Shown here: piece by piece, positions 15,583 through 17,092 of the stretch
Layout: every line of letters starts with the position of its first letter
Numbering within the stretch: position 1 is the stretch's first letter
IMG/VR virus record: IMGVR_UViG_3300032516_000008
Span: 93,092-112,971 of that record
DNA from: a virus
Taxonomy: Duplodnaviria > Heunggongvirae > Uroviricota > Caudoviricetes
DNA: 19,880 bases
Strand: one strand, 5' to 3'
Position numbers and translations under genes: made by a program
Notes under the pieces: generated by a model
Told to the model about the DNA's origin: nothing
What the model saw: only the letters and a program-made list of their open reading frames with translations
Databases searched by the model: none

Positions 15583-16953
15583 ATGAAAAAGTTATTCGAA
15601 TCATTGAGCCGACGATTGCGACCTGAAGATGTAGCAGAAATTGTTCTTCAAGTTTTGAAGGGCAAGTTGGATGCTACAGAAAAATCTTTATTGGATCAGG
15701 TTGCAAAGGGATCTTTGTCACGGAATGTATGTCATCTTTCATCAATGATGCAAGATTTTCGGCAGCCTATTGCACCAGAAAAGCAAGTAAAGAAAGCTCA
15801 AGAATTGTTTAAGACAGCATGCGAAGTTGATGCAACTGACGCTGAAGCAGTGCTGAAGTTTGTCAAAAAGATCTGTCGAGAGATCAAGAAGACATTTACT
15901 GAAAGTGACTTTTTGAAGAATCGTCTTAATCGCGAACAACGACATAAAAAGGGTTTAGACATTTCAAAGCGTCGGTATAACAAGCTGTTTCGATTTTTGG
16001 GACGGTTTGAAGACAAGTTGAATGTTTATGTGCTTGAACAACGTAAGTATGAAGCAACGTTGATTTCAAAGTCAAGTCTTGCATCAAAAATTGTGCAGAA
16101 AGATTTTTCTGCGTCAAAAGATGCAGCATGCTTCATTGCGTATTTCACTGCACGATGTAATCGACGAAGTGAATTTACAAATAAGAGTCAGGATAAACCT
16201 TTTGATGACGTGTCAAAGATGTTGTTAGATCGGTTTAAGAAGAACTCTTGTCGTGAAGGTTGGCGGGCAATTGCTCATGTAATGCCTGATATCGAAGTTG
16301 TAGAAAATCTTGATGACAAGGACAAAATTCAGTTATATGCAATGTGGTTGAAAATACTGGCAAATGTTGCTGACTTGTTAAAGCAGACTTGGGAAGCTAG
16401 CAAGTTTGACAGAACCACAATGATTGTTCATAGGGGTGATGATTCAAGTACATGGAATGCGCTTGCGGGAGCCTGGAATACTGCAAGGAAGAATTTTATT
16501 AGCTTGACATTTGCTCTTGGTGCAGAAAAGAATCTTGACAAAGTTTGTTTTGGCAAGGTTCTACGATTGATGGCAGCTGATGTAGCTCATTGGCATCGAA
16601 GTAGTGGTGGTAATTTAGAGCCTGATACACAGGTTTGGGCAAATTTGCCTGCACCGTGGGACGTGTTTAGTGGTGAGGCAGAATGTTCTAAGAAGAAAGT
16701 GCAGTCAGTTTGTGATAAGTTTGGAATTGATGCTGTTAAGAAGGGTTGGATCGCACCGGTTCAAAACAGGAAGACTGTGGAATTTAAGCCTACGCCTGAG
16801 TTAGTTCACGGCGTAGTTGTTTCTAATCCTGAATTAGCGATTGTATTGAAGAAAGCTGGATGGTTTTCTGGTAAGTATGCAACAGCTGTTAATTACGATG
16901 TTAATGTCGTAAGAGATGAATTCGGATATGCAAAAGAAGCAGTGTCAATGTAG
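15583..16953 (+). CDS. Uncharacterised, largely alpha-helical 456-aa protein
   Basis: Longest ORF in the window. Motif-like blocks AYFTAR..RRSEFTN, DSSTWNALAGAWN, GKVLRLMAADV..WH and PTPELVHGV. Its last 10 nt overlap the first 8-nt-loop tRNA-like gene. Confidence 0.88.
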   Translation: MKKLFESLSRRLRPEDVAEIVLQVLKGKLDATEKSLLDQVAKGSLSRNVCHLSSMMQDFRQPIAPEKQVKKAQELFKTACEVDATDAEAVLKFVKKICREIKKTFTESDFLKNRLNREQRHKKGLDISKRRYNKLFRFLGRFEDKLNVYVLEQRKYEATLISKSSLASKIVQKDFSASKDAACFIAYFTARCNRRSEFTNKSQDKPFDDVSKMLLDRFKKNSCREGWRAIAHVMPDIEVVENLDDKDKIQLYAMWLKILANVADLLKQTWEASKFDRTTMIVHRGDDSSTWNALAGAWNTARKNFISLTFALGAEKNLDKVCFGKVLRLMAADVAHWHRSSGGNLEPDTQVWANLPAPWDVFSGEAECSKKKVQSVCDKFGIDAVKKGWIAPVQNRKTVEFKPTPELVHGVVVSNPELAIVLKKAGWFSGKYATAVNYDVNVVRDEFGYAKEAVSM

Positions 16954-17016
16954 CTCAGTGGTAGAGCACGTGGCTCTTGGTCCGCGTGGACGCCGGTTCG
17001 AGCCCGGTCATTGATG
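16944..17016 (+). tRNA. tRNA-like gene with an 8-nt anticodon loop (ctcttggt), Lys(CTT)-like core; identity undetermined
   Basis: Acceptor gtcaatg/cattgat, D arm gctc-agtggta-gagc, stem cgtgg/ccgcg, variable region tggac, T arm gccgg-ttcgagc-ccggt, G73. Confidence 0.8.
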
Positions 17017-17019
17017 CAT

Positions 17020-17092
17020 GGCCTTGTAGCTCAGTGGTAGAGCTGTCGGCTCTTTTTCCGACTGGACGCCGGTTCGAGCCCGGTCAAGGCCG
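17020..17092 (+). tRNA. Second tRNA-like gene with an 8-nt anticodon loop (ctcttttt)
   Basis: Acceptor ggccttg/caaggcc, stem gtcgg/ccgac; D arm, variable region and T arm identical to copy 1; G73. Confidence 0.8.

Follow-up and report, generated by a model that had tools for sequence, protein, structure and literature searches.

In the rsr-yrlBA-rtcBA operon, RNA-repair enzymes are encoded together with a Ro60 orthologue and the Y RNA YrlA, whose tRNA-like domain has been suggested to competitively inhibit an anticodon nuclease (PMC7790460). Phage tRNAs escape host tRNases through changes in the anticodon loop (PMC10264068). Here we describe a phage locus in which the gene for a 456-amino acid (aa) protein adjoins two tRNA-like RNAs with 8-nucleotide (nt) anticodon loops. 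It lies in a 19,880-nt stretch (hereafter the window; positions 93,092 to 112,971 of the Caudoviricetes record IMGVR_UViG_3300032516_000008), the tRNA-rich end of a 112,971-bp viral contig (37% G+C) that carries 32 tRNA genes. Positions refer to the window unless the contig or another locus is named. The pair appears to be an undescribed protein-RNA system with a connection to tRNA damage and repair, and a full-text literature search found no description of it.

Linkage of the protein gene and its tRNA-like RNAs

The protein, a member of an uncharacterized family, is encoded by an open reading frame (ORF) on the plus strand at 15583-16953. RNA1 (16944-17016) and RNA2 (17020-17092) follow on the same strand and were recognized by ARAGORN, the Rfam tRNA model and direct reading. 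Both are 73 nt long and are separated by 3 nt. ARAGORN places the tRNA-like genes at 16944-17017 and 17019-17093 with the 4-nt "anticodons" cttg and cttt, respectively, and the Rfam tRNA model scores RNA1 at 52.8 bits and RNA2 at 57.2 bits (gathering score 29). The two RNAs have the same D arm, variable region (TGGAC) and T arm. Their acceptor stems (GTCAATG/CATTGAT in RNA1 vs GGCCTTG/CAAGGCC in RNA2) and anticodon stems (CGTGG/CCGCG vs GTCGG/CCGAC) differ, and all are paired. Each RNA has G73 and an 8-nt loop in the anticodon position: CTCTTGGT in RNA1 (16974-16981), of which C32-U33-C34 is the invariant part, and CTCTTTTT in RNA2 (17050-17057), read directly. Position 37 is G in the first loop and U in the second. 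The body of this RNA family resembles tRNA-Lys. RNA1 overlaps the ORF by 10 nt, and the TAG stop codon forms U8-A9-G10 of the RNA. Both the pair of cloverleafs 3' of the ORF and the overlap that includes the stop codon had been described in an earlier, sequence-only reading, and direct reading bears out every detail. The ViennaRNA minimum-energy fold of RNA1 differs from the cloverleaf.

The arrangement recurs at every homologous locus examined, which excludes a chance origin. We assembled a set of 96 loci (80 from species genomes, 11 from viral contigs, two from assemblies and three from metagenomic phages) and added 73 metagenome loci, giving 169 evaluable loci. tRNA-like genes of one family stand beside the protein gene on the same strand in all 169, in one to four copies per locus, and no evaluable homologue lacks them; the metagenome loci contribute 73 of 73. 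The motif GGCTC-loop-CC...GGTTCRA adjoins the gene in 95 of the 96 loci, the remaining one (L045) having the variant GGCAC, and ARAGORN calls one to four adjoining tRNA-like genes in almost every one. In each of the three closest metagenomic phage loci, a cttg tRNA-like gene overlaps the end of the protein gene. The RNA also adjoins a Streptomyces plasmid copy of the gene. A Miltoncostaea plasmid copy, whose protein is 32% identical, has the RNA just upstream of the gene and with a 14-nt loop, and distant viral homologues (~39% identity) likewise carry it just upstream instead of downstream. In five complete or large genomes the RNA motif is confined to the side of this gene, save for one stray, divergent match in a 13.7-Mb genome. 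Apart from the RNAs, no conserved neighbor gene was found across the loci.

The RNAs usually begin close to the end of the coding sequence. In 89 loci the median distance from the stop codon to RNA position 1 is ~8 nt; stop and RNA overlap in 27 of these, and 43 have a gap of 0-30 nt. In 11 loci from unrelated lineages a TAG stop codon is U8-A9-G10 of the RNA. The short median gap usually leaves no space for a separate promoter. That protein and RNAs form one module had been proposed from the window alone, with homologues lacking linked tRNA-like genes named as a ground for refutation. The linkage at 169 of 169 evaluable loci strongly supports the proposal, and this ground for refutation falls away; judged from gene arrangement, the gene and its tRNA-like genes appear to be one co-transcribed two-part module. 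Its carriers are phages, plasmids and bacteria of 12 phyla (Pseudomonadota, Bacteroidota, Planctomycetota, Acidobacteriota, Cyanobacteriota, Chloroflexota, Verrucomicrobiota, Armatimonadota, Gemmatimonadota, Deferribacterota, Myxococcota and Actinomycetota). A tblastn search of the GenBank phage collection found no named phage carrying the gene, and no defense islands recur around the pair.

The RNA family was analyzed in 145 unique sequences. All 21 stem pairs are paired in 96-100% of them. Acceptor-stem positions show three to six pair types each, which amounts to real covariation, and all four stems covary. Near-invariant are U8-A9, G18-G19 and the rest of the D arm, the TGGAC variable region, the T arm and its loop TTCGAGC, the two closing G-C pairs of the anticodon stem (G30-C40 and G31-C39) and C32-U33-C34; the cloverleaf retains the conserved tertiary-contact nucleotides of canonical tRNA and a perfect L-shape signature. 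The discriminator base varies across the family, and CCA is encoded in only ~8 of the 145 RNAs. The loop begins with CTC in 143 sequences and continues into 75 different 3' parts. It is 8 nt long in 76 sequences, 7 nt in 58, 9 nt in seven and 6 nt in four, and one distant member with a 14-nt loop extends the family range to 6-14 nt. Among the 7-nt loops, about one in four has a pyrimidine at position 37.

Closely related loci show how sharply the two parts of the RNA differ in their evolution. RNA1 has the loop CTCTTGG(A/T) in four related phage loci whose flanking coding DNA retains no recognizable identity, and the RNA2 orthologues in L001 and L002 have the 7-nt loop CTCCTAA. In Serratia loci with 84-95% identical genes, the RNA bodies are 100% identical, and the loops end in TCCAT, TGGGA, TCCTT or TCGGA. 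We compared divergence of the RNA with that of 4-fold synonymous sites of the adjacent gene in 544 pairs. At synonymous-site divergences of 0.22, 0.42, 0.61 and 0.77, the 3' part of the loop has diverged by 0.22, 0.31, 0.45 and 0.54, respectively, or 0.7-1.0 times as fast as the synonymous sites, and the loop often changes in length. The RNA body has diverged by only 0.6-4% over bins with 22-77% synonymous divergence. The 3' half of the loop is therefore nearly unconstrained and the rest of the RNA very strongly constrained.

Two further features of the RNAs were noted. The invariant G30-G31-C32-U33-C34 (GGCUC) is complementary to G57-A58-G59-C60-C61 (GAGCC) of the T loop and stem, for example 16972-16976 and 16999-17003 in the window. 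The T loop and stem that hold GAGCC are unusually conserved, and an alternative or intermolecular pairing of the two elements is conceivable. In a branch comprising L143, L144 and L146, the T stem differs and the loops, CTCTGATAA and CTCTACGGT, are 9 nt long (e.g., L146:11469-11651); ARAGORN labels these RNAs tRNA-Ser and tRNA-Val, which we judge to be wrong.

The protein family is large and conserved. Relatives at E ≤ 1e-3 fall into more than 1,100 clusters at 90% identity, or 559 clusters at 50% identity; homologues are typically 45-70% identical and are annotated "hypothetical" where the source names them. The 456-aa protein contains no Pfam family at E ≤ 0.01, no NCBIfam model scores above its cut-off, no PADLOC protein model matches at E ≤ 1, the PHROG library has no family for it and a profile search of PDB sequences gave no match. 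The AlphaFold2 model (predicted local distance difference test 84, predicted template modeling score 0.83) consists mainly of alpha helices and has a small beta element at the C-terminus. For the whole model, the best Foldseek match in the PDB has an E-value of 0.2 and the best match in a wide VIA-align search has a Z of 6.6, which we judge to be helical noise. The C-terminal half, modeled separately, matched no solved fold, and the ESM Atlas gave no usable match by shape or by features. Relatives in the AlphaFold DB are all within the family. The top one (A0A0G3GV89) has 608 residues, of which 166-607 align, with 165 extra residues at the N-terminus. A search for fused forms of at least 799 residues found none, and in variants with a different N-terminus of ~170 residues, that region has no Pfam domain. 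BFVD contains distant structural relatives in Yasminevirus and Edafosvirus (E ~1e-13, 17-19% identity), of the Klosneuvirinae, a group rich in tRNA and translation genes.

At least 95% conserved in 241 members are D208, D287, S288, N292, N299, R302, K325, D333, H338 and several arginines, and the conserved residues from D208 to H338 are compatible with an enzyme. The HEPN motif R-x(4-6)-H has no conserved instance in two family alignments, one of them of 241 sequences; the conserved His338 sits 10 residues past the invariant Arg328. The protein itself has no PF09414 nucleotidyltransferase domain. On the strength of these profile searches, we place the protein outside the known RNA ligase and HEPN families and the module outside every PADLOC system.

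RNA-repair genes and other neighbors

Several enzymes of RNA repair are encoded by the phage. A Thg1-like 3'-5' nucleotidyltransferase, a tRNA 5'-end repair enzyme (13796-14509, plus strand; PF04446 3.6e-23, phrog_4717 4.6e-73), is encoded ~1 kb upstream. A class I methyltransferase (18438-19007, plus strand), a DUF488 protein and an Rnl2-type RNA ligase lie 1.4-2.6 kb downstream. Only the N-terminal part of the ligase (19578-19880, plus strand; PF09414 1.1e-11) is present, as the gene is cut by the contig end. Outside the window, at contig positions 84839-85969, an RtcB-type RNA ligase homologue is 39% identical to Chitinimonas RtcB. With the RtcB, Rnl2-type and Thg1 genes, the phage therefore has two RNA ligase types plus Thg1.

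RNA-repair genes (Pnkp/Hen1, Rnl, RtcB and Thg1) also accompany the module elsewhere, at about eight loci in all, among them independent bacterial ones. Bacterial locus L008 encodes HD-PNK, a PF09414 ligase homologous to the phage ligase and a methyltransferase, and bacterial locus L009 encodes a kinase, a Thg1 homologue, Hen1 and Pnkp; the methyltransferase or Hen1 adjoins the module in these two loci. HD-PNK is found in L043, RtcB in L095 and in L176, Hen1 and Pnkp in L137, and a nucleotidyltransferase and a peptidyl-tRNA hydrolase in L097.

Other genes of the phage array were recorded alongside. The region 13796-15546 comprises the Thg1-like gene and, overlapping it by 4 nt, the gene for a 346-aa protein whose C-terminus is a DUF559/Vsr-like endonuclease. 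Genes for a DUF4031 protein (17180-17449) and a DUF488-N3a protein (18988-19344) are located downstream of the module and before the RNA ligase; this DUF488 protein is 81% identical to that encoded at L001:11595-11924, ~4 kb downstream of the module there. Genes for an HNH (11541-12152) and an endonuclease I-like protein (12296-13183) stand between tRNA genes, and the endonuclease genes of the array look like free-standing homing endonucleases. Three tRNA genes in the window have CAT anticodons (907-981, 4964-5040 and 11460-11534). Outside the window, a tRNA-Lys(UUU) called by ARAGORN at contig 91950-92040 is 91 nt long, ~15 nt above normal, and may contain an insertion or intron. The phage also has a tRNA with a CUA anticodon, the amber suppressor type, outside the window at contig 81989-82062, and related phage locus L003 has a CUA tRNA at 8982-9055. 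TAG terminates 20 of 94 long phage ORFs, including the 456-aa gene.

Possible roles of the module

The explanation we favor, with about an even chance of being right, is that the RNA is a dedicated partner or substrate of the new protein and linked to anticodon-loop damage and repair, in a system analogous but not homologous to Ro60-YrlA. We infer that RNase P would release the RNAs from the 3' end of the protein's mRNA; in overlapping loci, this cut would strip the stop codon from the mRNA. The released RNAs would not decode, and each may serve as a dedicated partner or pseudo-substrate of the protein, which could recognize the tRNA body together with the 5' side of the anticodon loop. The module may act in a conflict over tRNA anticodon-loop cleavage and repair, in line with the repair genes of this phage and of the loci listed above. 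A lead in the same direction is the name of the top AlphaFold DB relative, "RNA ligase domain-containing protein".

Several observations weigh against this explanation. Repair genes are near only ~5% of loci, which is well above the chance content of an 8-20-kb window, and the majority of copies stand by themselves, with unrelated genes around them. Catalysis, more than a passive scaffold, is suggested by the conserved Asp, Lys and His residues, and the RNA ligase fusion implied by the AlphaFold DB entry is a matter of its name alone. The loop is also partly constrained. U35 is present in 112 of 145 sequences, and phages share the loop CTCTTGGA with Bacteroidota, Verrucomicrobiota and Planctomycetota. 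Recognition of the body and CUC alone would explain neither.

Decoding of codons is unlikely as judged from the alignments: in a decoder the anticodon and position 37 should be conserved, whereas here both vary. The 7-nt loop, purine 37 and anticodon under purifying selection of a canonical decoder are not the pattern of the window RNAs or of the family. The sequence-only reading had offered RNA1 and RNA2 as quadruplet decoders of CAAG and AAAG. Read in this way, they would be +1 frameshift suppressors and the protein a charging or modifying factor. Both RNAs do have the 8-nt loop of such suppressors, ARAGORN gives them 4-nt anticodons, and the RNA1 loop is kept among four phages. That conservation stops at the phage group, however, and no four-base anticodon is kept among orthologues more widely; the nearly neutral drift of the family "anticodon" and the loop lengths of 6-14 nt argue against quadruplet decoding, as do the RNA2 orthologues with a 7-nt loop, the variable discriminator base and a protein model without a synthetase-like fold. 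In the 94 phage ORFs, in-frame CAA|G and AAA|G are not avoided but slightly over-represented, with G after CAA at 1.15 times and after AAA at 1.18 times the expectation, and the phage has ordinary tRNA-Lys genes (UUU twice, CUU once). We consider quadruplet decoding highly improbable. Still less credible, and almost certainly wrong, is the view of the RNAs as decaying tRNA pseudogenes, or remnants of integration sites, that are merely carried along with the gene. The loops are aberrant and tRNA genes are often integration sites, but the RNA body is conserved far beyond the adjoining coding sequence, compensatory changes maintain pairing in every stem and no conserved integrase lies nearby. The conservation itself contradicts this view.

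Other readings give the RNA an active role without decoding. An unlikely one is a type III-like toxin-antitoxin or abortive-infection pair, in which the protein would be a toxin directed at tRNA, for instance a nuclease or modifier of the anticodon loop, and the RNA a pseudo-substrate antitoxin whose tandem copies raise the dose. PrrC, RloC and colicin E5 are anticodon nucleases that cut around position 34, and the strictly conserved part of the RNA surrounds this position. The module stands alone as a two-part unit in variable accessory contexts and on plasmids, its RNA copies vary from one to four, the protein family has conserved polar residues and nearby repair genes could be counter-measures. 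In ToxIN-type systems, however, the RNA comes before the toxin gene. Here the protein comes first with no terminator between the parts, and the RNA is therefore not made in excess. Furthermore, PADLOC gives no match, a protein identity of 45-60% across phyla is unusually high for a toxin and the whole pair occurs inside phage tRNA arrays. If, on the other hand, the RNAs alone were free decoys that absorb anticodon nucleases, a role that the sequence-only reading had also offered, the protein would merely stabilize or mature them. The tRNA-Lys-like body fits such decoys, as do the phage tRNAs that evade tRNA-targeting defenses through altered anticodon loops (PMC10264068) and the competitive inhibition suggested for the YrlA tRNA-like domain (PMC7790460). 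An obligate link to one large, highly conserved protein at 169 of 169 loci would then be unexplained, as would retention of the pair by non-phage bacteria, and we regard decoys as a poor prospect. Equally doubtful is the proposal that the 3' half of the loop is a short anticodon-like guide, 3-6 nt after C34, diversified by an arms race, through which the particle would find a particular loop, codon or tRNA 3' end. In its favor, a U33 turn would stack just these variable nucleotides for pairing, the Serratia loops differ on identical bodies, certain loops reappear in different phyla and 30 of 145 loops contain UGG, which is complementary to the CCA end of tRNA. Loop divergence, though, does not surpass the neutral rate, loop length ranges from 6 to 14 nt, many predicted partner anticodons are unused by bacteria and the module's own mRNA is not complementary to the loops (154 hits vs 149 ± 18 in controls). 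In a broader form, which we hold to be distinctly unlikely, an exchangeable 3' half of the loop sets the target of a ribonucleoprotein particle (RNP) made of a new-fold protein and a complete tRNA scaffold, with a specific tRNA loop, a codon or the CCA end as candidate targets. If true, this RNP would be a naturally reprogrammable, tRNA-shaped guide in conflicts over tRNA cleavage and repair.

The pair matters for annotation and for experiment. Gene finders call its RNA partner a defective or "undetermined" tRNA, or assign it an arbitrary amino-acid identity, and recognizing the pair clears false suppressor and four-base-decoder calls from phage and bacterial tRNA inventories. Its reach extends over more than 1,100 clusters at 90% identity and 12 bacterial phyla as well as large phages and plasmids, and giant viruses encode distant structural relatives. 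As a compact two-gene system with cultured carriers, among them Serratia fonticola, Kordia algicida OT-1, Chryseobacterium species and Myxococcus fulvus 124B02, it makes a probably new protein fold and its tRNA recognition directly accessible to study.

Comparison with described systems

The +1 suppressors sufD, sufJ and SufB2 resemble the window RNAs in having an 8-nt loop in an otherwise normal tRNA. Such suppressors arise by single insertions in true decoders whose anticodon matters, whereas the 3' half and the length of the module loop are nearly unconstrained across the family. The phage tRNAs with altered anticodon loops (PMC10264068) are, like the module RNAs, phage-borne, part of a tRNA array and tRNA-Lys-like in body. 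Unlike the module RNAs, they decode, have 7-nt loops and lack a partner protein, and the module family is also chromosomal in many bacteria.

Type III toxin-antitoxin systems such as ToxIN also combine a protein with tandem structured RNA genes in a small, mobile, stand-alone unit. The module has the reverse gene order and no terminator between its parts, its RNA is tRNA-shaped and not a processed repeat array, and no toxin fold was found. The healing and sealing systems T4 Pnk/Rnl1 and bacterial Pnkp/Hen1 share the gene company found near the module (Rnl2-type ligase, PNK, Hen1, Thg1 and RtcB), and the conserved element of the module RNA surrounds position 34, where ribotoxins cut. In contrast to these systems, most module copies have no nearby repair gene. 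We know of no healing or sealing system with a dedicated tRNA-like RNA or a protein of the module's family.

The closest parallel is Ro60/Rsr-YrlA. There, as in the module, a large RNA-binding protein is encoded beside a dedicated tRNA-mimicking non-coding RNA, although for the module protein binding is a prediction, and both are sometimes found inside RNA-repair gene clusters. The differences lie in the components. The module protein has no TROVE domain detectable with Pfam or NCBIfam, and a Ro60 chain, with its HEAT-repeat ring plus vWA fold, is absent among the Foldseek and VIA-align matches, where a missing match does not prove a different fold. Where a Y RNA has a Ro-binding stem, the module RNA is a full 73-nt cloverleaf, and it lies directly at the 3' end of the coding sequence, often overlapping it. 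The YrlA model RF02553 reaches 21 bits against a gathering score of 69, in a match that spans the RNA1/RNA2 junction. The sequence-only reading had suggested an RNP like that of Ro60 and Y RNA. Homology between the two finds no support (no Pfam hit, no fold match), and a functional analogy is strengthened by the recurrent RNA-repair neighbors. The pair would be a second, independent case, beside Ro60-YrlA, of a tRNA mimic kept with a dedicated protein near RNA-repair genes, and it opens the role of such tRNA mimics to comparison.

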